From IMG/VR virus record IMGVR_UViG_3300032322_002195, positions 1 through 64,000 of that record: a stretch of DNA of 64,000 bases; one strand, given 5' to 3'. Positions 40,610 through 58,111 of this stretch are shown here, in pieces (the first letter of the stretch is position 1; each line of letters starts with the position of its first letter). The notes under the pieces were generated by a model that saw only the letters and a list, made by a program, of their open reading frames with translations, was not told the origin of the DNA and ran no database searches. The translations under genes were made by a program, and so were the position numbers. The stretch is from a virus.

Positions 40610-42517
40610 TTATCTCAATTCAGCAACATTGAATGTAGGTACACCGTCTACTCTAACATGCCCGTAGAACCTGTTGTTTACGACCTTCTTAGCGTAACGA
40701 GTCATGATACCTTTAACTGGAGCAAAGTTGAAAGGATTGTACATAGTTGGTGTAAGTTGCAAAGGCACGTATGGTGCGTAGATGTAACCAGTATCCAACA
40801 ATGATTTACCTTTATGACCGATGATTACAGAGTAAGCTGGTGCATATGGGTCACGGAATACTTGATAACGTCCACCCAATGTACCGATTCTTTCGATACC
40901 CATGTTATATTGGTCTTGCTCAGGGTTAGCATCAGACACGTGGAAGTATTCTAAATCATCGAATACAGCTGAAATTTCAGAAGATACAACGATAAAGTTA
41001 GCACCACCACGAAGTGTTGATTTGTGGATTTGAGCAGAGATTTGGTTAATCTTAGTGATAAGAGTTTGGTTCCAGTCCTTTTGAGTGTAAGGGCTAGCAG
41101 CAGAAGAAGCTCTTCTCCATCCGTTGTAGTCCCAACGCAATTGCCATGCAGCAGCTTTACGAAGGTCTCTAAGGATTTCACGGTCAATTTCCGCAGCAAC
41201 TTGCTCTGACAACATAGCTGTCAATTCAGCTTCAGCGTCAATGTTGTGGAATGCACTAACATCTTGAGCCAATTCTGGTGACCAAGTAGCACGTAATTTT
41301 CTTTCTTCAACGGCAACAACAACTTCATCAAGTCTGAAAGAAACTTCATTCAATTCAGTTTCCAATTCTAGAGAAGCGTATTCAGCCCATGCAAATACAA
41401 AGTTATAAGCAGTAACAGCTGATACAGTTGAAGCTGAAGCACCTATATAACCATCATAAGTAGCTGTACCAGCAGCAGCAGCACCAGTTCCAGCAGTAGT
41501 ACCTACAGGGTGAGTCAAGTCAAGCTCAACATACATAACACCATTAGGAGTAGTCAATACAGGATAAGTTTGACCATTAGATGTAAAAGTATTTGTTGTT
41601 TGAACAATACCTTGACCGTATTTTTGAGTAACCAAACGGAATGGAACTTCTTGGTTAGCAGCGATAATGGTATTACCGTTAGCGTCAAGGATAGCATTTG
41701 TAGTTACGCAATGCAAAGAAGCTAAGAATGATTCAGTATCCATTACGTTACCATCAGGACCAGTCAATACTTCACGACCACCACCACTATTAGTTGGGTT
41801 GAAACCACTCATGCTAAACATAGCGTATCTCAATGAACCATCATTAGCAGTTGGGAAAGAAGTCGTTCCAGCAGGGCTTAGAACAACAAACTGACCATCT
41901 GAATTTAATCTAACAGCGTTGTTGTTAGCTAAAGTATAAGTTCTGATAGTAAGTGTACCTTTAGATTGGTCAAACATACCATCGTTGTAGAAAATATCAT
42001 ATAAGTTCTTAGCCATAAATGGAGTTGTAGCGCATGAACCATTAGCTGGAAGAACGCAAGATGGAATGCCAGTAGAAGCAAATGATGTGTGAGCTGAATA
42101 CTGAGTAAGATAAGTATCGTTAGTTGGGCTAGTACCAGCATAGTCATTACCAGCAACAGGAGGTGTAGAACCGTCTACACGGCTAGATGTAAGAGGTACG
42201 AAATAGAACAATTTACCGATAGGCATGTTCATAGCTTGAACAGACACGATGTCGTTAGCTAATAATTTAGAGAAAACACGTCTTACGATAGGGAATACTA
42301 CTGTTTCGAATGAACCAGAAGAAGTTGAAGTTGTAGTCTCAGTCAACAAAGTTGAAGCTTGGTTTTCATACAACTGAGCGATGTTTTCTTTTACGTGGCC
42401 TTTAAGACCTTCAAGGAAGCCTAAGCTTTCCCATTTTGATTGGGTTTCTTTACGGATAGCCTTCATGTGGTTTAATCCGATGTTACCCACTTGTCCAGAT
42501 GTTAATAAATGTGACAT
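40610..42517 (-). CDS. Major capsid protein, T4 gp23-like
   Basis: PIVRRVF, VSVQAM, RKLRATWSPELAQD, HNIDAEAEL, EIDREI, YAPYVPL, GIMTRY. Confidence 0.97.
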   Translation of the reverse strand: MSHLLTSGQVGNIGLNHMKAIRKETQSKWESLGFLEGLKGHVKENIAQLYENQASTLLTETTTSTSSGSFETVVFPIVRRVFSKLLANDIVSVQAMNMPIGKLFYFVPLTSSRVDGSTPPVAGNDYAGTSPTNDTYLTQYSAHTSFASTGIPSCVLPANGSCATTPFMAKNLYDIFYNDGMFDQSKGTLTIRTYTLANNNAVRLNSDGQFVVLSPAGTTSFPTANDGSLRYAMFSMSGFNPTNSGGGREVLTGPDGNVMDTESFLASLHCVTTNAILDANGNTIIAANQEVPFRLVTQKYGQGIVQTTNTFTSNGQTYPVLTTPNGVMYVELDLTHPVGTTAGTGAAAAGTATYDGYIGASASTVSAVTAYNFVFAWAEYASLELETELNEVSFRLDEVVVAVEERKLRATWSPELAQDVSAFHNIDAEAELTAMLSEQVAAEIDREILRDLRKAAAWQLRWDYNGWRRASSAASPYTQKDWNQTLITKINQISAQIHKSTLRGGANFIVVSSEISAVFDDLEYFHVSDANPEQDQYNMGIERIGTLGGRYQVFRDPYAPAYSVIIGHKGKSLLDTGYIYAPYVPLQLTPTMYNPFNFAPVKGIMTRYAKKVVNNRFYGHVRVDGVPTFNVAELR

Positions 42518-42547
42518 AGTTTTTTGTATTTATTTTTTTGGTTATTG

Positions 42548-43864
42548 TTATTTGTTTTCAACTCTTTGAATCAAATCAAGGATTCTTTTAGTTGATGGGT
42601 CAACATAGGCAGTGCTTTCGTTTAATTGTTTAGAGCTGCCAGTGGTACCCTCTTTTATTATTTTTCTTTCTATTGCTTCAGTGATTGGCTTTCTAGAAGC
42701 TAATTCATTTGCAATAGTTCTGTATAACTTTTTAGACTCCTTAAGGTTTGTAACTCCTTCATCAAATCTTTTGATGATACTTTGTTTTTCAGCCTTGGTT
42801 GTCGCATGTTCCATAAACAATCTTGTTACGTAAGTCAAGTTGCTATTGAACACTACTGTTTCTACCAACTTTGTTCTAAATTCTTTTAAAGCTTTTCTAA
42901 ACTCTTCGTTTTCAGTTTTTAATTTTTTAGACTCAGTCAATAAAGTATTGTATTTTTTTGCAGTTTCAGAAACTAGTTTTTTAGCGATTACAGATTCTTT
43001 AAGATTATCAGCGCCAGCACCTTTAGGTTGACCTATGTTTGCTTTTCCTGGTAATCTATGAGCTTGACCAGAACCAACAGGGATGGCCTCTTCAATAGTT
43101 TCTTCCTCCTCGCCTTTTTCCTCTTCACCTTCTTCGTCATCTACATCAGATAAATCAGAAGGTTCACCTTCTTCATCATCCATTTCAATTTCGTAGTCTA
43201 CGTCATCACCACCTTCAATGTCATCAACATCAATGTCAACATCTTCAACATTACCAGCCATTTCATCATCCATGTCATCACCCATGTCTAGGTCTGAAGT
43301 TTTGATTACGTATTCTCCTGGTTCAGAGACAGTTAGGTGAATTTCGTCACCTACGATTTCGATTTCGTCATCACCGCTTAATTTTTTGTAAACTGCGATT
43401 ACGTCATCGTCAGACGCTTGGGTCATGTCCAATTCTTCTGATGCCATTGCATCCATTCCTTCTTCGTACATACCTTCTTCCATTTCTTCTTCGTACATAC
43501 CTTCGTACATACCTTCTTCCATTTCTTCTTCGTACATACCTTCTGTTGGCATTTCACCTTCGGTCATTTTTGATTCAGATTTGGTTTCTGATTTTTCTTT
43601 TTTCTCAGTACCACCTTTGCCATGTTCTTTCTTTTCCTCCGCTGGAGTTTCAGATTTCTCATGTTCTTCATGTGATACTTCGTTTAAAGAGTCTTCAACC
43701 TCTTCTTCCACATAAGCCTCTTTAGTTAGAGACTCTTTCACCACACCATCAATTTCTTCTTTAGCTACGCTACGAAGTATTTCTTTAGTGTTGGCATTGA
43801 GAGCACTTTGAATATTTTTAATATCCAAAAGAGCTTCTTCAAGTATTGATTTTTTGTCTGCCAT
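42548..43864 (-). CDS. Prohead core/scaffold protein
   Basis: Highly acidic with a coiled-coil C-terminus; lies between the protease and capsid genes. Confidence 0.8.
   Translation of the reverse strand: MADKKSILEEALLDIKNIQSALNANTKEILRSVAKEEIDGVVKESLTKEAYVEEEVEDSLNEVSHEEHEKSETPAEEKKEHGKGGTEKKEKSETKSESKMTEGEMPTEGMYEEEMEEGMYEGMYEEEMEEGMYEEGMDAMASEELDMTQASDDDVIAVYKKLSGDDEIEIVGDEIHLTVSEPGEYVIKTSDLDMGDDMDDEMAGNVEDVDIDVDDIEGGDDVDYEIEMDDEEGEPSDLSDVDDEEGEEEKGEEEETIEEAIPVGSGQAHRLPGKANIGQPKGAGADNLKESVIAKKLVSETAKKYNTLLTESKKLKTENEEFRKALKEFRTKLVETVVFNSNLTYVTRLFMEHATTKAEKQSIIKRFDEGVTNLKESKKLYRTIANELASRKPITEAIERKIIKEGTTGSSKQLNESTAYVDPSTKRILDLIQRVENK
43457..43543 (-). repeat. Coding tandem repeat EGMYE(EEME)
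   Basis: TTCGTACATACCTTC occurs four times. Confidence 0.85.
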
Positions 43865-43983: not shown

Positions 43984-44706
43984 TTATTCTGATAAAAAAT
44001 TGTCTAATTTATCTTTTAAGCTTTCTTTAATTATACTAGATTTTTTTTCGATGCTTTCAACATAAGGTTTAGCTTCAGTCACATCTCTAAAAATCCAAGC
44101 GTCTGGTGTTGATGGTGCTGTAACAACATCCCAACAAATTATTTCAAAATCATCTTGAACAATTTGTTCACCACTTTTTCCCTCTTTAAGAGAACCAACA
44201 CCTCTAGATGAAACACCAATTTTAATTCTATTTCTTAAAAGATTCGCAACTTCATCACCTTTGGTGGAAACGATACCATAGTTTATAAAACCAGGTGTCA
44301 TCAGAATTTCCATTTTACCCATAAGAGTTTTACCTTCCCACCATGTTTCAATAATATTGTGTGAAATTCTATCACCAGCGATAATGCTAGATTCTGGATG
44401 GTCTAATTCACCAACCGCACTACGTTCTCTAATAGCTTTTTGGTATATTTCGTTTTGTTTTTTTAAAACTTGTTCTGGATATACCCTACCATTACGATTA
44501 AGAACACCGTATTTTTGTAAAATAACATAAACTACCAAAGGTTCTGCTATTATTATTTTTCCGCTGTCAAGTTTTTTTATTTCATTTATGAACGCTTGGT
44601 TCCTAGGTTCATCAGGACTAATATAACCAGCGTCATGTTCGATTAAATAACCGAAGCCAGTTTCTCCACGTCTAAGCGTTTTTATTTTATTATAATTTAT
44701 ATCCAT
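43984..44706 (-). CDS. Prohead core protease, T4 gp21-like
   Basis: NRNGRVYP, GELDHP, SHNI, IGVSSRGVGS, WDVVTAPSTPDA. Confidence 0.93.
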   Translation of the reverse strand: MDINYNKIKTLRRGETGFGYLIEHDAGYISPDEPRNQAFINEIKKLDSGKIIIAEPLVVYVILQKYGVLNRNGRVYPEQVLKKQNEIYQKAIRERSAVGELDHPESSIIAGDRISHNIIETWWEGKTLMGKMEILMTPGFINYGIVSTKGDEVANLLRNRIKIGVSSRGVGSLKEGKSGEQIVQDDFEIICWDVVTAPSTPDAWIFRDVTEAKPYVESIEKKSSIIKESLKDKLDNFLSE

Positions 44707-53078: not shown

Positions 53079-53475
53079 GATATTGTTGGTTATAATTTAA
53101 TATTAGGTCTTTTTCATATAACTTTTCTTCAACTTCTTTTATTTTTTCTCCAAATTTAAAACAAAGTCTTTTTTCTGGATATGAGTCATAAGCATTAATG
53201 TTTTCCCATGCCAATGCAATAACACCATCAACAGCATCCCATACGGCAAATGTGTCACTGTTTTGAATAACATCTAATTTTAATTCAGACTCCAAACGTC
53301 CAACTTTTTTAATAAAATTGTCATGAGGGGCTTGTGGTCTACCAGAAGCTGGAAAAGTATCCCATTCTTCACCATCAATATTTTTACTTGTATCTGAAAA
53401 TATAAATTCAAACAAGTAATTACCTTGATAGTTTTTGCCAACCATGTTAACATATATGAGATACAAATCTTTCAT
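53062..53475 (-). CDS. Hypothetical protein
   Basis: 137 aa; overlaps both neighbours. Confidence 0.7.
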   Translation of the reverse strand: MKDLYLIYVNMVGKNYQGNYLFEFIFSDTSKNIDGEEWDTFPASGRPQAPHDNFIKKVGRLESELKLDVIQNSDTFAVWDAVDGVIALAWENINAYDSYPEKRLCFKFGEKIKEVEEKLYEKDLILNYNQQYHGETK

Positions 53476-55061
53476 TATTTTTCAGCTTTTGGGTCTGGTT
53501 GAACGTTAGGCATTGGAAGAAAAGGTTTATTTTTTCTACTTGGTATGTTTGGTTCACTAGGTTTGGTTTCAGGTGTTACTTTAGGTTTGACAACTGGTTC
53601 AATAGTAGGCTCTATCATAATATCATCTTCTCTGAATGTTTCTCTTAACATATTTTTAATAATGTTTTTAGGTTCAAATATACTTAAATTTTCTGATATA
53701 GACAAGTTCTCGTTGCTCTTTTTCCCCCAACTTTTACCTTTTTTAGGTGTACCACATGCTGAAGGTGTTGGCCTACAAGCTGGATATTTTCTATTTTCAC
53801 CTTCTTTTCTACCACAAGGTTTGCATTTTTTCCTACCAGTTTTCTCATCTGTTCTACATGTGTTGCAATCTACCCAACCTTGTGATTTTCCTTCACCACC
53901 TTGTCTAGAAAACCACCCATGAAGACCCTGTTCTTTTTCTTTAGAAAAATCAGTCTTTTTAGACTCATTCATTTTTTCATCTTTGGCTAAAAATGCATCA
54001 ATCCACGCTTGCAATTCATGAACATCTGGCGCATATTCCTTTCCCTTTTTTCTAGTGATAGCACTATGAGCCAAATTAATTAATTCTTTGGTGTATTCTT
54101 CAGATTCATTTGTTTTTTTTCTACCTTGACAATGTGCTCTTTGGCTAAATCCTTTTGGATTGTTGCAATCTATGCTTCTTTTGTATTTTTCAGACCATTT
54201 TTCTTCAATTGAGGCTTCTTTCAAAACAGAGATATCGTCATAATCTGAATTTAAAATTTTTATTTGTGTGTTTTTAGCAATTACATTATGTTTATCATCA
54301 ACATAAATAAAAGGACTAGTCCATAAAATTAAATCCCCTAAATACATCACCATTTGGAAATGATTTGTTGGATTTTTAGATTTATTTTTAAACTCCACTT
54401 CTTCAACCCCACCAACTAAATCATTTGATATCTGATATAATAAATGACGAGCCACGTTTTCATTTATATCAGCCAAATTATCATCATAGTCAATTTTCCA
54501 CATAGGAATCCACTCTGTTTTCATTCTTTCATTGAATTTTTTGAATGGGATTTTATATGATTTTATTTTTTCAATTATTCCTTTTATTGTTTCATCTTCA
54601 GACTCATTGGTTTTATTTCCCCAATTAGCAGCACCGACCTTACGACATTGAACTAGCGAACCTGAACCGTAGGCACTTGGCCATACATCATATCTAGCTC
54701 TAACTTTATAATAACAAGCGTCTTTTTTACCTTTTTTCTTTTTTCCTTCTTCAATTGCTTCATAAACAACCAAATCATCATCAAACTTTGTTTCAATAAT
54801 TTCCACCATCAAATCACCAGAACCCTTAATAACTCTATGAAAAGTATTCTTAGGAATAAAAAATTCTTCATTAACATTTAATTTTTTTGGTAACTCATTG
54901 TCAAATTGTACCAACCAATCGTTTTCATTTAAAGGAATTACAATTCTGTCTTCTTTATCACGATGCCATACCAATTCATCACTTTCAACAAGATTTGAGA
55001 AAGTTCTTCTAATCACATTACCATTTTTTTCTTCACTATATGGTTTCATATTACTTTTCAT
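53475..55061 (-). CDS. Modular putative polyprotein: cupin-like domain plus three basic Cys-containing modules
   Basis: WHRD...IPKNTFHRVIKG cupin-like domain; modules DAC...WPSAY...QCRK, KWSEKYKRSIDCNNPKGFSQRAHC and a 6-Cys WVDCNTC module; K-[TMS]-N-E-[SN] occurs four times at module boundaries. Confidence 0.75.
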   Translation of the reverse strand: MKSNMKPYSEEKNGNVIRRTFSNLVESDELVWHRDKEDRIVIPLNENDWLVQFDNELPKKLNVNEEFFIPKNTFHRVIKGSGDLMVEIIETKFDDDLVVYEAIEEGKKKKGKKDACYYKVRARYDVWPSAYGSGSLVQCRKVGAANWGNKTNESEDETIKGIIEKIKSYKIPFKKFNERMKTEWIPMWKIDYDDNLADINENVARHLLYQISNDLVGGVEEVEFKNKSKNPTNHFQMVMYLGDLILWTSPFIYVDDKHNVIAKNTQIKILNSDYDDISVLKEASIEEKWSEKYKRSIDCNNPKGFSQRAHCQGRKKTNESEEYTKELINLAHSAITRKKGKEYAPDVHELQAWIDAFLAKDEKMNESKKTDFSKEKEQGLHGWFSRQGGEGKSQGWVDCNTCRTDEKTGRKKCKPCGRKEGENRKYPACRPTPSACGTPKKGKSWGKKSNENLSISENLSIFEPKNIIKNMLRETFREDDIMIEPTIEPVVKPKVTPETKPSEPNIPSRKNKPFLPMPNVQPDPKAEK

Positions 55062-55503
55062 TTTTTTCTTGCCATTTATATGAAATAGAATCTTCTTTAA
55101 TAGGTCCTCCTTTAGCCCATGTTCTACAGCTTCTAGCCGAATGACACTTAAAATGATGCATCCAACAATACCCTAATCTTCCATCTTCATCAGAAACTGG
55201 CCCTGGCATGCAATCATCCATTCTCGGAGATATATCAAAAGCAACGCAATTTCCACATTTAGATTCCATAGCTGCTTCAACGCTAGTATTCCAATGGTCG
55301 GCTATCTTTTCCCAAAAATCAGCTGGTTCATCAACATTTAATGGACCATACTGAATATGTGGTTCGTTTATCGCAGCATCTCTATTTTTGGTGTTTAATT
55401 CCAAATCTTGAGTTGCTTCAGGACATTCCATTTCTGGTTTGCCCAAAAGTTGTCTGTTTTTACGTTCAATTAAACGTTGTTTTTGTTTTGATATTCTGTT
55501 CAT
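55051..55503 (-). CDS. Cys/His-rich putative metal- or Fe-S-binding protein
   Basis: CGNCVAF...GYCWMHHFKCHSARSCRTW; ATG 55503 (track start 55527). Confidence 0.65.
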   Translation of the reverse strand: MNRISKQKQRLIERKNRQLLGKPEMECPEATQDLELNTKNRDAAINEPHIQYGPLNVDEPADFWEKIADHWNTSVEAAMESKCGNCVAFDISPRMDDCMPGPVSDEDGRLGYCWMHHFKCHSARSCRTWAKGGPIKEDSISYKWQEKNEK

Positions 55504-55517
55504 AATTAATATTTTTT

Positions 55518-57221
55518 TTACCACCATGTACCACCACCAGCTAAACCTAATGATTTAGCATATCTTGGTAAACGACATGCCCAGTAGCCTGGAGATGTTC
55601 TATCAGTCTTTGAAGGACAGTTATGTCTATCAGAAAAAGCTTTTCTAGCTTTAGGGTCTCTTAATTTAACAGCCAAGTTACCACCACCAGATTTAGCACC
55701 GAAAGAAACTTTTTTAATGTTACCAGACTGAGGGTCTCTTACATAAACATAAAATTTCTTTGAACCACCTCTTTTAGGTTTACCTAGTTGAACTTTTTTA
55801 CCTTTGTACTTGGCTTCATTTAAAGTTCTATTATTCTCATAATTTTTTAAATCGCCAATAACAACATGTTTACCGTTTTCAGCATTATATTTAACTATAA
55901 GCGTTTCATTCCCTTTATCATCATCACCTATAAAATAGTTTACATTATCATTGCTCAAACTAAAATATAAATTTCTACCATAATCGTCTTCTTCACCTGT
56001 CATTACTTTATCCCCAGACGCTGATTCGATAGCTGATTTAATCCAGTCAAAACTCTCCTCAAACTCTTCATAAATAAAGTTCATTTTTATCTTCTTACCT
56101 TCAATTATGATATATTGATTATCAAATTCGTTAACAATAAAACCATCATTCTCATTAAGTTTGATTAAACCTTTTGAATATAAAGCTTTAACTTCTTTAA
56201 TTAAATTGAAAAATTTTTCAGAACCAATTCTATATATCGTTTCATTCAAAGGTATTTCATTTTCAATATGGTATTTTAAATCATCTGAAATTGGTGTTTC
56301 TGTATGCAATTCCATTGGTGCCGACCATTCATCTTCTGAATCTACGTGATAATCGTTCAATCTACCCTCAATAAAGTGATAAACTTCTTCAACATCATCA
56401 GCTGAAGTCGCTATGTGGTCCAAAGCCCAACCATGTCCATCTGATAATAAAGCATCAACCTCATCATAATTCATTTTTAATAATTCACCAGCAGCGTGAT
56501 GGATTGTTTTTAGATTTTGCCAAAACATGTAATTGTTTGATTCTCTTTCAATTGGATTGTGTGTTTTTTGATATTCAGCCTCTTCGCTACCTTCTGGCGC
56601 AAATATGCTTAATTTTTTAGGGTTTATTGTCATCATATTTTCTTCAATCCCCTCTTCTCCACCAAAATCTAAATTTTCATCATCCGATGGCTCTTCTGCT
56701 GGTTGCTCATCATCCATAGGCTCTTCCGCTGGTTGTTCATCATCCATAGGCTCTTCTGCTGGTTGCTCAGATGACATATCATCATCTTTACCAGAAGATT
56801 TAACTTTATTAATAATGTCTTTTTGGTCTTCAGCATCCATTTCAGACGTATGGGTAGCTGATAATAACGAGTTAATTGCAAATTTTTCTAATTCAAAATC
56901 TGGTTGACCTTGTTCCTCATTATATTTTCTGAGTGATTGACCTAACTTTCCAGTTAGTTGTTGGATAAATTTCTTTGGGTCTGATTCCTCGTCTGCCTCA
57001 ACACCAGCATCAAATGGCTCATCATCAAATGGTTTATCATTTGATTTAGGTTGCTCCATAGGGGCGCTATCAACAGATGCTGGCTCTTCAGCTGGGGCTT
57101 CAGCTGGGGCTTCAGCTGGTTCTTCAACTGAAGCCTCTACATCTGGTTGACTAGACGCTGGTAACTTTAATTTGTATTTTGTTTCTTCGTCTAAATTACT
57201 TTTTAGACTTTTTTTTTTACT
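55518..57221 (-). CDS. Modular protein; probable -1 frame continuation of 57203..58111
   Basis: Track ORF 55518..57059 stays open for 54 further codons up to 57221 (SKKKSLKSNLDEETKYKLKLP...EEPAEAPAEAPAEEPA); ends in a basic module after TLNE. Confidence 0.75.
   Translation of the reverse strand, partial: SKKKSLKSNLDEETKYKLKLPASSQPDVEASVEEPAEAPAEAPAEEPASVDSAPMEQPKSNDKPFDDEPFDAGVEADEESDPKKFIQQLTGKLGQSLRKYNEEQGQPDFELEKFAINSLLSATHTSEMDAEDQKDIINKVKSSGKDDDMSSEQPAEEPMDDEQPAEEPMDDEQPAEEPSDDENLDFGGEEGIEENMMTINPKKLSIFAPEGSEEAEYQKTHNPIERESNNYMFWQNLKTIHHAAGELLKMNYDEVDALLSDGHGWALDHIATSADDVEEVYHFIEGRLNDYHVDSEDEWSAPMELHTETPISDDLKYHIENEIPLNETIYRIGSEKFFNLIKEVKALYSKGLIKLNENDGFIVNEFDNQYIIIEGKKIKMNFIYEEFEESFDWIKSAIESASGDKVMTGEEDDYGRNLYFSLSNDNVNYFIGDDDKGNETLIVKYNAENGKHVVIGDLKNYENNRTLNEAKYKGKKVQLGKPKRGGSKKFYVYVRDPQSGNIKKVSFGAKSGGGNLAVKLRDPKARKAFSDRHNCPSKTDRTSPGYWACRLPRYAKSLGLAGGGTWW
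56677..56769 (-). repeat. 30-nt coding tandem repeat x3 (EQPAEEPMDD)
   Basis: TCATCATCCnnnGGCTCTTCyGCTGGTTGy repeated. Confidence 0.85.
57081..57126 (-). repeat. 12-nt coding repeat (EEPA/EAPA x4) upstream of the annotated ATG
   Basis: GCTGGGGCTTCA units in frame with 55518..57059. Confidence 0.8.
57189..57220 (-). other. Candidate -1 frameshift/slippage site
   Basis: mRNA GUA AAA AAA AAA GUC UAA; A10 run at 57209-57218 followed by hairpin GUCUAAA-AAGUAA-UUUAGAC. Confidence 0.6.
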
Positions 57222-58111
57222 TCACCTTCGGTAAGTCTATCAATGATTGCGTCCATATTTTTAAGTGCGTTAAAAATACTTAGTTTGGATTCTTTAACCT
57301 CACTTTTTTTTGCACCAGCAATCTTATCAGCGTAAGTAATTTTGTCTTTTGGTTCAGCTAAAGCTGCAAATTCTTTTTCTTTTGCAGTCATTTCTTCGCC
57401 TTCTCCCATATCAATCATCTCATCAATAGCTTTTTCAGCTTCAGTCATTTCAACCTCATCCATATAAGCTTCTTCATACATAGATTCATACATAGATTCG
57501 TCCATTGCTTCATCCATCCCATTTTTTTTCTTAACGTCCATTACACATGCTTCATACTTGTCTTTGTTTTCTCTACCAACACTAGCTGTGCAAATAGCCC
57601 ATGGATTATTTTTCTTTTTTGCCTCATCCATATACATTTCATCCATAGGGGTGTTTTCTTCCAAATTTCCATGACCTGTAAACCCATTGCCTTTCATTTC
57701 AGAAAAACCACCAGCCATAGGCATGTTTTCAGTCAAAAGATTGTCATTTAAAAAAACATTTATTTCACCATCATAGTTATACGCTTCAGCAAGACTTCTG
57801 AACTTAAGATTCAAATGCTTTATAGCTTTTGCGTAAGAAGGATAAGCTTCTTGTTTTTTATTTTGTAAACCGCCAATATACTTGAAATCTTCAGCAACCA
57901 AATTTTTGATTTTATCAGATTTTTTAATATACCATTCGTGGTTTTCTCTTACAATAGCATAAGCATTCCCATCTGGTCCAACCTTTGTCAATTCCACTAC
58001 GATATTAGATTTGTTTTCATTGATTGGTTTTATCCCCATCAATTGTTTCATACGCTCATTTATTTCATGACCCTTTAACCCTATTGGATTAATTAGTATA
58101 TTTTTTTTCAT
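57203..58111 (-). CDS. Modular acidic protein with a small Cys-pair module
   Basis: 302 aa; many MDE/MYE/xxE units; KKKNNPWAICTASVGRENKDKYEACVMDVKKK; late motif at 58143-58151. Confidence 0.8.
   Translation of the reverse strand: MKKNILINPIGLKGHEINERMKQLMGIKPINENKSNIVVELTKVGPDGNAYAIVRENHEWYIKKSDKIKNLVAEDFKYIGGLQNKKQEAYPSYAKAIKHLNLKFRSLAEAYNYDGEINVFLNDNLLTENMPMAGGFSEMKGNGFTGHGNLEENTPMDEMYMDEAKKKNNPWAICTASVGRENKDKYEACVMDVKKKNGMDEAMDESMYESMYEEAYMDEVEMTEAEKAIDEMIDMGEGEEMTAKEKEFAALAEPKDKITYADKIAGAKKSEVKESKLSIFNALKNMDAIIDRLTEGEVKKKV

Follow-up and report, generated by a model that had tools for sequence, protein, structure and literature searches.

A cluster of genes for putative acidic precursors with small basic modules

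The window analysed here comprises the initial 64 kb of a virus record of 108,837 bp (IMG/VR record IMGVR_UViG_3300032322_002195; GC content ~30%), and its minus strand carries four open reading frames (ORFs), ORF302, ORF513, ORF158 and ORF528, whose products we propose to be head-cargo precursors, probably cut by the prohead protease of the phage into basic mini-proteins. The original prediction, made from this DNA alone, had described five small basic modules here, M1 to M5, with 2, 2, 6, 2 and 2 cysteines, and their ORFs, sequences, cysteine positions and charges all proved to be as quoted. The cluster comprises the following features, where pLDDT is the predicted local distance difference test score of the AlphaFold2 model and L numbers denote related loci.

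53475-55061, minus strand: ORF528; cupin, then M1, a folded middle domain, M2, M3 and a tail
54792..55046, minus strand: cupin-fold domain of ORF528, residues 6-90; AlphaFold2 pLDDT >90, Foldseek matches; an ORF of its own in L013, L017 and L018
54747..54755, minus strand: border 1, I-E-E, residues 103-105, before GKKKK; in the disordered segment 97-109
54603..54746, minus strand: module M1, residues 106-153; polylysine, then a two-helix unit; Cys116 and Cys139; PHROGs 727, 38880 and 3477
54216..54602, minus strand: middle alpha/beta domain, residues 154-282; AlphaFold2 pLDDT 70-96; elsewhere also a separate protein; no assigned function
54105..54209, minus strand: border 2 (I-E-E, residues 285-287) and module M2 (residues 288-319); residues 283-288 disordered
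53709..53966, minus strand: module M3, residues 366-451; preceded by KMNE; Cys399, 402, 413, 416, 429 and 436
53478..53708, minus strand: C-terminal tail of ORF528, residues 452-528; mostly disordered; kept in relatives ('C528')
55051..55527, minus strand: ORF158, Cys-rich (7 Cys), between ORF513 and ORF528; matches only viral proteins of no known function
55518-57059, minus strand: ORF513; acidic residues 1-415, then C-terminal M4
55815..57059, minus strand: N-terminal part of ORF513, residues 1-415; very acidic, EQPAEEPMDD repeats; ends in TLNE
55521..55814, minus strand: module M4, residues 416-513; AKYKGKK..RHNC..YWACR..WW; Cys481 and Cys495; PHROG 7595
57203..58111, minus strand: ORF302, acidic precursor rich in MxE and LxE sites, with MDE and MYE repeats; carries M5
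57512..57622, minus strand: module M5, residues 164-200; AKKKNNPWAIC..YEACV..KKKNGMDE, preceded by YMDE; Cys174 and Cys189

In the window, M2 reads KWSEKYKRSIDC..AHCQGRKKTNE, with cysteines at positions 299 and 311, and M3 reads SKKTDFSKE..GLHGWF..CNTC..CKPC..ACRPTPSAC..KKSNE, which includes a CxxC..CxxC arrangement. The net charge per residue is about +0.2 to +0.25 for M1 to M4 and about +0.11 for M5, and the acidic surroundings that had been claimed for the modules are evident in the net charges of ORF513 (-44) and ORF302 (-11). KTNESE does occur twice, at residues 150-155 and 316-321 of ORF528. The even number of cysteines is kept in instances from other phages, namely in 149 of the 152 distinct instances of M1, in 56 of 56 for M2, 155 of 156 for M3 and 42 of 43 for M4. 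The MYE and MDE repeats of ORF302 are shared with the scaffold-like protein ORF438 encoded further along the window, and we propose that residues 1-415 of ORF513 serve as a propeptide or charge-neutralising part.

Searches of the four ORFs against Pfam, NCBIfam and PDB sequences returned nothing above threshold except PHROGs without known function, and no window ORF matched DUF6321 (PF19846), a domain that recurs among the homologues described below, above its cut-off. M4 and ORF158 matched only viral hypothetical clusters in the ESM Atlas, the nearest named one being DUF5754 at 0.88; Pfam matches to DUF5754 stayed under the cut-off. The cysteine pattern of ORF158 (CGNC..C..GYC..FKC..SC) had no family or structure match, and its orthologues begin at Met9 of the window protein. 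M5 was found only in close relatives (L003, L008 and L010), with no match among isolate phages, and the 108,837-bp genome holds no additional module copies elsewhere. Between ORF302 and ORF513 lies a 143-nt gap (57060-57202, minus strand) with a coding-like GAA/CCA/GCT repeat that encodes ..EEPAEAPAEAPAEEPA.. and lacks a start codon; the counterparts of these two ORFs are separate genes in the relatives L003 and L008.

Predicted fold of the proposed precursors

We modelled ORF528 with AlphaFold2 from a 97-sequence alignment, and the model (mean pLDDT 75, predicted template modelling score (pTM) 0.36) resembles beads on a string. Its folded parts are the cupin domain (residues 8-90, pLDDT >90), the two helices of M1 (residues 115-123 and 130-142), the alpha/beta middle domain and a helical M2, while M3 is modelled as short helices and two beta hairpins around CxxC..CxxC. 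The pLDDT falls below 50 at residues 97-109, 150-152, 283-288, 369-372 and 441-465, the stretches in which we propose that cutting occurs. The original prediction had named folding of the modules as a single unit among the outcomes that would count against it; on the strength of this model, with its pTM of 0.36 and disordered linkers, we rejected the reading of one co-folding unit.

The cupin-like N-terminal domain of ORF528, first recognised from sequence, was confirmed by fold, since Foldseek matched it to many small cupins (E 3e-5 to 5e-4, target template modelling score 0.5-0.63; E ~3e-5 with a score of ~0.6). Modelled alone, M4 reached a pLDDT of 75 and a pTM of 0.66, with the 13 residues upstream disordered, and had no match among solved structures (best VIA-align Z 2.7).

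Hydrophobic-x-Glu borders before the modules

The five borders read AIEE/G, SIEE/K, KMNE/S, TLNE/A and YMDE/A in the window, where the slash marks the predicted cut between positions P1 and P1'. Measured against (L/I)-x-Glu, IEE105/G, IEE287/K and LNE415/A fit, and MNE365/S and MDE163/A have Met at P3. Among relatives, [LIVMF]xE, which has a background of 2.9% of positions in the representative proteins, stands directly before M2 in 19 of 20 representatives, as well as in locus copies of the EKWSEKYK type, and directly before M4 in 14 of 14, with 64 of 75 in a second set of small M4 proteins. Lysine tracts of variable length separate the motif from M1 and M3. From these modules we walked upstream to the first acidic residue, for which a random acidic residue gives a null of 0.19. 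This residue was a Glu with a hydrophobic residue two positions earlier in 99 of 100 relatives for M3 and in 66 of 95 for M1.

Despite the variable lysine tracts, the motif still adjoins the first basic residue, and hydrophobic-x-Glu followed by polylysine is conserved before M1. The P1' residue is Lys, Ala, Gly or Ser. In a 23-sequence alignment of M4, the P1 Glu (23/23) was the sole invariant residue outside the module, and the sequence upstream of the motif could not be aligned; the borders are conserved across unrelated flanks. Taken together, and as judged by sequence, the module borders carry the cleavage motif of T4 gp21. The claim that the modules are bounded by xxE on both sides thus holds for the N-terminal borders, which are conserved as hydrophobic-x-Glu, but not in the same form for the C-terminal TNE and SNE, which lack a hydrophobic P3.

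Hydrophobic-x-Glu sites are densest in ORF302, at 7.3 per 100 amino acids or 2.3 times expectation, the highest value in the window, and the densities of ORF302, ORF420 and ORF528 resemble that of the scaffold-like ORF438, which has 25 such sites. At four loci (L014, L015, L016 and L029) a short C-x-C-P-D/H-L-x-x-E immediately precedes the M4 site, as in ASCGCPDLQQE/AEY.

Many homologues begin with T4-like leaders

Many homologues start with a leader of 6-22 amino acids that ends in hydrophobic-x-Glu and is followed straight away by the basic module, as in MDDLYGSIDE/KKKK and MKITKQQLDSIIKEELEAVLDE/KKKK. At L021:8100-9240 and L023:7650-9710, three to five adjoining ORFs share the 22-residue leader MKITKEYLxxIIKEELEAVLxE before unrelated cargo. 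Some of this cargo consists of Cys-rich basic units absent from the window, and the parent contig of L021 has an S77 protease. Cyanophage M2 proteins, one of them 39 amino acids long, begin MKSFKQFQE/SWSNKYKK (Bellamy_122) or MKTFKQFQE/GWSNKYKK (SynMITS9220M01), and in S-SM2 the M2 unit lies inside a longer ORF as RKTFEEFRE/SWSNKY.

A start of the type MK[TS]F[KL]E[HY]I was found in 32 of 120 small M4 proteins, compared with 0 of 3238 background ORFs; the genomic context of the MKTFLEHI-type M4 proteins was judged through their nearest isolates, Melnitz and immuto. T4 internal protein (IP) I begins MKTFKEF.. and IPII and IPIII begin MKTYQEFIAE/. In T4, the ~10 N-terminal residues of the internal proteins are a capsid targeting sequence (PMC9026906).

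The modules are shuffled among phages

A HMMER search with ORF528 over 1.84 billion cluster representatives (clusters at 50% identity) matched 5786 representatives at E<=1e-3 and 2853 at E<=1e-10, with lengths of 95-1427 amino acids, all of whose members databases label as hypothetical. The original prediction had set shuffled recurrence of the modules against one fixed architecture, and hidden Markov models built for each module from 80 IMG/VR loci, then mapped, gave 33 module orders in the best 150 representatives. Both fused and split forms occur at the 80 loci. Orthologues keep the order of the window, and other arrangements include M1-M2-M3-M4 in one ORF, M1-M3, M4 and cupin as adjoining ORFs, M2-M3-M1, M3-M1, M2-M1, M1-M2-M4 and single modules. 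In L074 and L024, M1 (and M3) carry the ORF158 domain as an N-terminal fusion, the junction reading SLEE/KKK in L024, and ORF158 therefore belongs to the same module pool.

Module identity is 50-90% in thousands of proteins, some of them from high-GC phages such as L073. That M1 and M2 remain so extremely similar even between phages whose hosts belong to different phyla suggests that they have a specific partner in common. In cyanomyoviruses, ORFs located between terS and terL, which encode the small and large terminase subunits, contain the same modules along with DUF6321, DUF192 and others. The cyanophage homologues SSM1_115, Syn9 gp114, S-CAM9 gp114, Bellamy_123 and SSM2_109 combine M1 and M3 with DUF6321, and S-CAM9 also has M2; no homologue was found in S-PM2.

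Several further arrangements were observed around individual modules. M1 is split by an insert of ~275 amino acids in two ORF528 orthologues (L007:689-3259 and L008:6771-9236). By eye this insert has intein hallmarks (..WPSAYA/CVPE..ATDNH..ITGN/SGALVKC.., with slashes at the insert ends), and no Pfam intein domain was found at E<0.01; an intein within a small virion-cargo module would be unusual, and the insert underlines the conservation of M1. M2 is often C-terminal in proteins of 100 amino acids (L025, L043, L047, L058 and similar loci), whose N-terminal CxxC..CxxC zinc-ribbon-like unit behind an MKI(L/I)LTE leader is another recurrent module. In the Pelagibacter phage HTVC008M (L098:7076-8866), the gene adjoining the M4 gene encodes a cytidylyltransferase-like domain and DUF5824; cytidylyltransferase-like proteins (T4-GC190) recur in cyanophage virion proteomes.

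The putative precursor genes adjoin a T4-type head-gene block

The precursor genes belong to a block that runs from 59.8 kb to 40.6 kb on the minus strand with all genes co-oriented. Its first part holds thymidylate synthase, ORF89, ORF302, ORF513, ORF158, ORF528, ORF137, ORF303 and ORF420, which are followed by the large terminase, the portal, three small ORFs, the protease, the 438-residue scaffold-like acidic protein and the major capsid protein. The cluster directly precedes the terminase, portal and protease genes, and its co-orientation with them, which had been claimed, extends to the gene for a Gp23-type capsid protein. The relevant features are listed here.

43984..44706, minus strand: prohead protease, the proposed processing enzyme; Pfam Peptidase_S77 (PF03420), E 1.7e-25, above the curated cut-off
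40610..43864, minus strand: major capsid protein (Gp23 family) and acidic scaffold ORF438; expected substrates of the S77 protease
43924, 44725, 46646, 50845, 58144 and 58456, minus strand: copies of ATATTTAT upstream of six start codons
58144..58151, minus strand: ATATTTAT upstream of ORF302

The protease is 31% identical to T4 gp21 (E 3e-23), with the GELDHP, GVSSRG and PDAW motifs (His, Ser and Asp) aligned, and in the capsid protein LLTE60/TTT stands in the region that corresponds to FLTE65/AEIG of T4 gp23. An S77 protease of the gp21 type together with a Gp23-family capsid protein indicates that the phage is a T4-like myovirus, though a distant one; the isolates closest to it by terminase, Flavobacterium phage immuto and cyanophages, share ~30% identity with it.

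The cluster had also been described as following a late motif. ATATTTAT is indeed present 20-45 nt upstream of the starts of ORF302, ORF89, the terminase, the protease, ORF263 and the scaffold. It is not, however, the T4 late promoter TATAAATA, which is not enriched in the window (18 seen versus 14 expected), and the total number of ATATTTAT copies in the window is not above chance, so that their positions alone are suggestive. ATATTTAT may be the late promoter core of this phage.

Free-standing modules lack the border motif

M4 also exists as a free-standing protein of 83-90 amino acids in pelagiphage podoviruses, Roseobacter phages and a Nitrosopumilaceae spindle-shaped virus. It starts M-A-K/I/T-Y-K/R-G, where the Ala is exactly the predicted P1' residue. 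In three further contigs (L073, L079 and L082, 78-92% complete), M1, M3 and DUF6321 are encoded by small genes arranged in tandem, and the hydrophobic-x-Glu border is absent. In all six viruses with separate small module genes the border was absent, and most of the genes begin at or next to the first residue of the module. Because these free-standing homologues lack the motif and begin at the predicted P1', the motif is not needed for the fold, and the comparison indicates that hydrophobic-x-Glu is an add-on rather than part of the fold. Both M4 cysteines are lost together in HTVC026P gp24. The archaeal example is ORF8 of the Nitrosopumilaceae virus (L096:1998-2249; 41% identity, E 1e-5), and M4 is thus shared by viruses of bacteria and of archaea.

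An S77 protease accompanies the fused forms in 17 of their 50 parent contigs; of the 6 contigs with a completeness of at least 90%, 5 have it. No S77 protease was found in L073, L079, L082 or the complete genomes HTVC026P and CRP-901, a check that covered the five bacterial viruses among the six with free-standing modules, a small and non-random sample of genomes without S77.

Homologues are detected in purified virions

The original prediction implied that module proteins should be present in virions, and homologues have been detected in purified virions of two cyanophages (PMC3037559, PMC10665884). Purified S-SM1 virions yielded 13 peptide counts for T4-GC119, which is encoded in 15 of 16 cyanomyoviruses by a gene of 276-2985 nt (Sullivan et al. 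2010; PMC3037559 Suppl. Table 8). The S-SM1 protein annotated as T4-GC119 is SSM1_115, which carries M3, M1 and DUF6321. S-CREM2 ORF137, found in the virion proteome with 4 unique peptides and 4.1% coverage only (PMC10665884 Table 3), lies at the same locus as T4-GC119 and has a long acidic N-terminal part with a C-terminal DUF6321. Coverage this low would be expected if just a small fragment were retained, although it does not prove this.

A model for head-cargo precursors and its alternatives

The account that we favour, and judge somewhat better than even, is that ORF302, ORF513, ORF158 and ORF528 are head-cargo precursors that the prohead protease cuts into basic mini-proteins. Long acidic precursors would be made late and incorporated into the prohead core, where the gp21-type Peptidase_S77 would cut after hydrophobic-x-Glu in the disordered linkers. 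Cleavage would release the strongly basic mini-proteins M1 to M5, presumably stabilised by cysteine pairs or zinc, and possibly also the cupin, middle and ORF158 domains. The acidic pieces would be degraded like scaffold and leave the head, and the basic products would remain with the packaged DNA and probably be ejected along with it. The polylysine tails and the zinc-knuckle-like CxxC..CxxC of M3 suggest that some of these products bind nucleic acid, in this case DNA. When the refuting outcomes named in the original prediction were checked, none told against it, and its polyprotein reading is supported in part: the modules, their shuffling, the N-terminal borders, the S77 protease and the border disorder have stood, while cleavage (for every member), prohead incorporation, head retention, DNA binding or ejection, and a DNA-condensing or effector role are what we infer from them.

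A number of observations weigh against this account. The C-terminal borders follow [KST][NDK]E without a hydrophobic P3, so that exact release of a module needs a broader specificity or trimming at the next site, and these borders may not be cut by the same rule as the N-terminal ones. Unlike many homologues, whose leaders strengthen the analogy with T4 internal proteins, ORF528, ORF513 and ORF302 have no recognisable T4-type leader at their N-termini. The modules also occur in viruses without proheads or S77, and protease-processed packaging therefore cannot be their sole mode. M1 and M2 are far more conserved than is usual for simple DNA-condensing proteins, which hints at a specific partner. 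Virion mass spectrometry speaks neither to the place of a protein within the virion nor to its intactness, and Syn9 gp114 was not detected in the virion proteome (PMC3037559 Suppl. Table 8).

Of the alternative explanations, the strongest, though we consider it unlikely, is that the ORFs encode uncleaved multi-domain proteins, virion-associated or not, whose modules bind nucleic acid or protein in cis and whose hydrophobic-x-Glu is a linker feature, for instance a helix cap in front of a lysine tract or the point where an acidic amphipathic helix ends. Such a reading would accommodate the fact that cleavage is deduced rather than seen, the helices that AlphaFold2 continues over some linkers (e.g., residues 305-339) and the shuffling itself, as shuffled domains are common in uncleaved phage proteins; work on SPN3US has likewise found homologous head proteins that are processed in one phage and not in another (PMC5694885). 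M2 and M4 moreover hold the motif in a fixed register with the module, and on those data alone the motif could belong to the domain. However, the free-standing homologues start at the predicted P1' without it, which makes the motif dispensable for the fold, and before M1 and M3 it adjoins the first basic residue whatever the length of the lysine tract. The predicted disorder of the borders, the co-occurrence of the motif with S77 and the existence of T4-like leaders also argue for processing.

We give slightly less credence still to a role outside the head, in which the proteins would either be cytoplasmic factors, for example ones that bind DNA, remodel the nucleoid or regulate, or serve as tail, fibre or baseplate accessories, and their detection in virions would reflect co-purification or an external location. 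M4, M1, M3 and DUF6321 are encoded in podophages, siphophages and the archaeal spindle-shaped virus by small genes near replication or terminase genes, the genes neighbouring the cyanophage homologues are annotated as tail-fibre-like, and the S-CREM2 study itself warns of possible co-purification of virions with abundant proteins that are not structural (PMC10665884). Against this stand two independent virion proteomes with members at the same locus, capsid-targeting-like N-termini and gp21-type sites that are specific to head cargo in T4, and the position of the genes, which immediately precede those for terminase, portal, protease, scaffold and capsid and share an upstream motif with them. 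Finally, since Lys and Glu are common in coding sequence of ~30% GC and hydrophobic-x-Glu occupies ~3% of positions, the pattern could in principle be a compositional accident of Lys/Glu-rich low-GC sequence. This we regard as very improbable, because it is contradicted by the 50-90% identity across thousands of proteins, high-GC L073 included, by border frequencies of 70-100% versus a null of 19% and by the conserved parity of the cysteines.

Relation to known systems

Processing of head cargo by a T4-type protease is already known from T4 and from giant phages. The T4 proteins IPI, IPII, IPIII and Alt are basic, head-packaged proteins with a short leader ending in (L/I)-x-Glu that is removed by gp21, a protease of the same S77 family as that of the window; the T4 cuts are IAE/A in IPII and IPIII, ITE/A in IPI, and ITE-6 and LTE-619 in Alt (PMC9026906, PMC5694885). 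The leader starts of the homologues (MKTFLEHI.., MKSFKQFQE/) are near-identical to those of the T4 internal proteins, whereas the internal proteins themselves have no cysteines and no sequence similarity to the modules, and no Pfam, PHROG or NCBIfam link between them was found. T4 also uses one gene per cargo, whereas here several modules and globular domains lie in one ORF with internal sites and are shuffled among phages. T4 gp22, gp67 and gp68 are, like the precursors, acidic products of head-cluster genes that gp21 cuts at many sites into small peptides, and ORF302 and the N-terminal part of ORF513 resemble the scaffold ORF438 of the window in composition and site density. The T4 proteins, however, yield mostly acidic products that leave the head or stay as internal peptides, and they have no embedded basic Cys-paired modules.

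The giant phages phiKZ, 201phi2-1 and SPN3US likewise have many head proteins with propeptides, a T4-like prohead protease and an x-x-Glu motif, and their paralogues share N-termini on cargo that includes enzymes (PMC5694885). They differ in their motif (S/A/G-x-Glu) and in carrying large cargo with propeptides of 100 amino acids rather than strings of basic modules of 30-100 amino acids; the searches that we ran revealed no homology to giant-phage head proteins. The cyanomyovirus T4-GC119 and DUF6321 proteins are, in contrast, true homologues and have been detected in virions, although the window ORFs lack DUF6321. In the literature these proteins appear only as hypothetical or structural ones, and their modular nature with protease-site borders has not been described.

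The adenovirus core proteins pVII and pX (mu) are basic DNA-condensing proteins made as precursors that are trimmed by the virion protease after assembly. They come from an unrelated virus with an unrelated protease and unrelated sequences, and do not form a polyprotein of shuffled modules. Our literature search found nothing that links capsid targeting sequences or internal proteins to cyanophages or pelagiphages, no mention of DUF6321 and no description of the present system. The novelty lies in small modules that are shuffled within polyproteins, in their occurrence as separate genes in viruses that lack the protease, and in the extension of a T4-type leader to marine phages.

More tentatively, and with odds that we put below even, aquatic viruses may share a toolkit of small basic virion proteins stabilised by cysteine pairs or zinc (M1 to M4, DUF6321, the ORF158 domain and others). 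Where a T4-like phage has an S77 protease, it would make these as leader-tagged polyproteins that are cut in the head, and protease-less podophages and siphophages as well as thaumarchaeal spindle-shaped viruses would encode them as separate small genes. Under this reading, the conservation of M1 and M2 in phages of cyanobacteria, SAR11, Methylophilales and Flavobacteria would reflect a universal partner, which could be the DNA inside the head or some conserved stage in delivering the genome.

Few viruses on Earth are as numerous as the T4-like phages that infect cyanobacteria, SAR11 and further abundant bacteria of aquatic habitats. To our knowledge, counterparts of the T4 internal proteins had not been recognised in T4-like aquatic phages. 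If the head-cargo account is true, the 5786 clusters of 'hypothetical' proteins, including T4-GC119 and DUF6321 proteins, would gain a place in the virion and a maturation mechanism, and the T4 capsid-targeting leader would be conserved far beyond the T-even phages. The system would also be a clear case of polyprotein evolution, in which free-standing genes were fused through protease sites, and its leaders and sites would be usable for loading foreign proteins into such heads. Its products would then be candidate DNA-condensing proteins or ejected early effectors, for example anti-defence factors, in marine phage-host systems.

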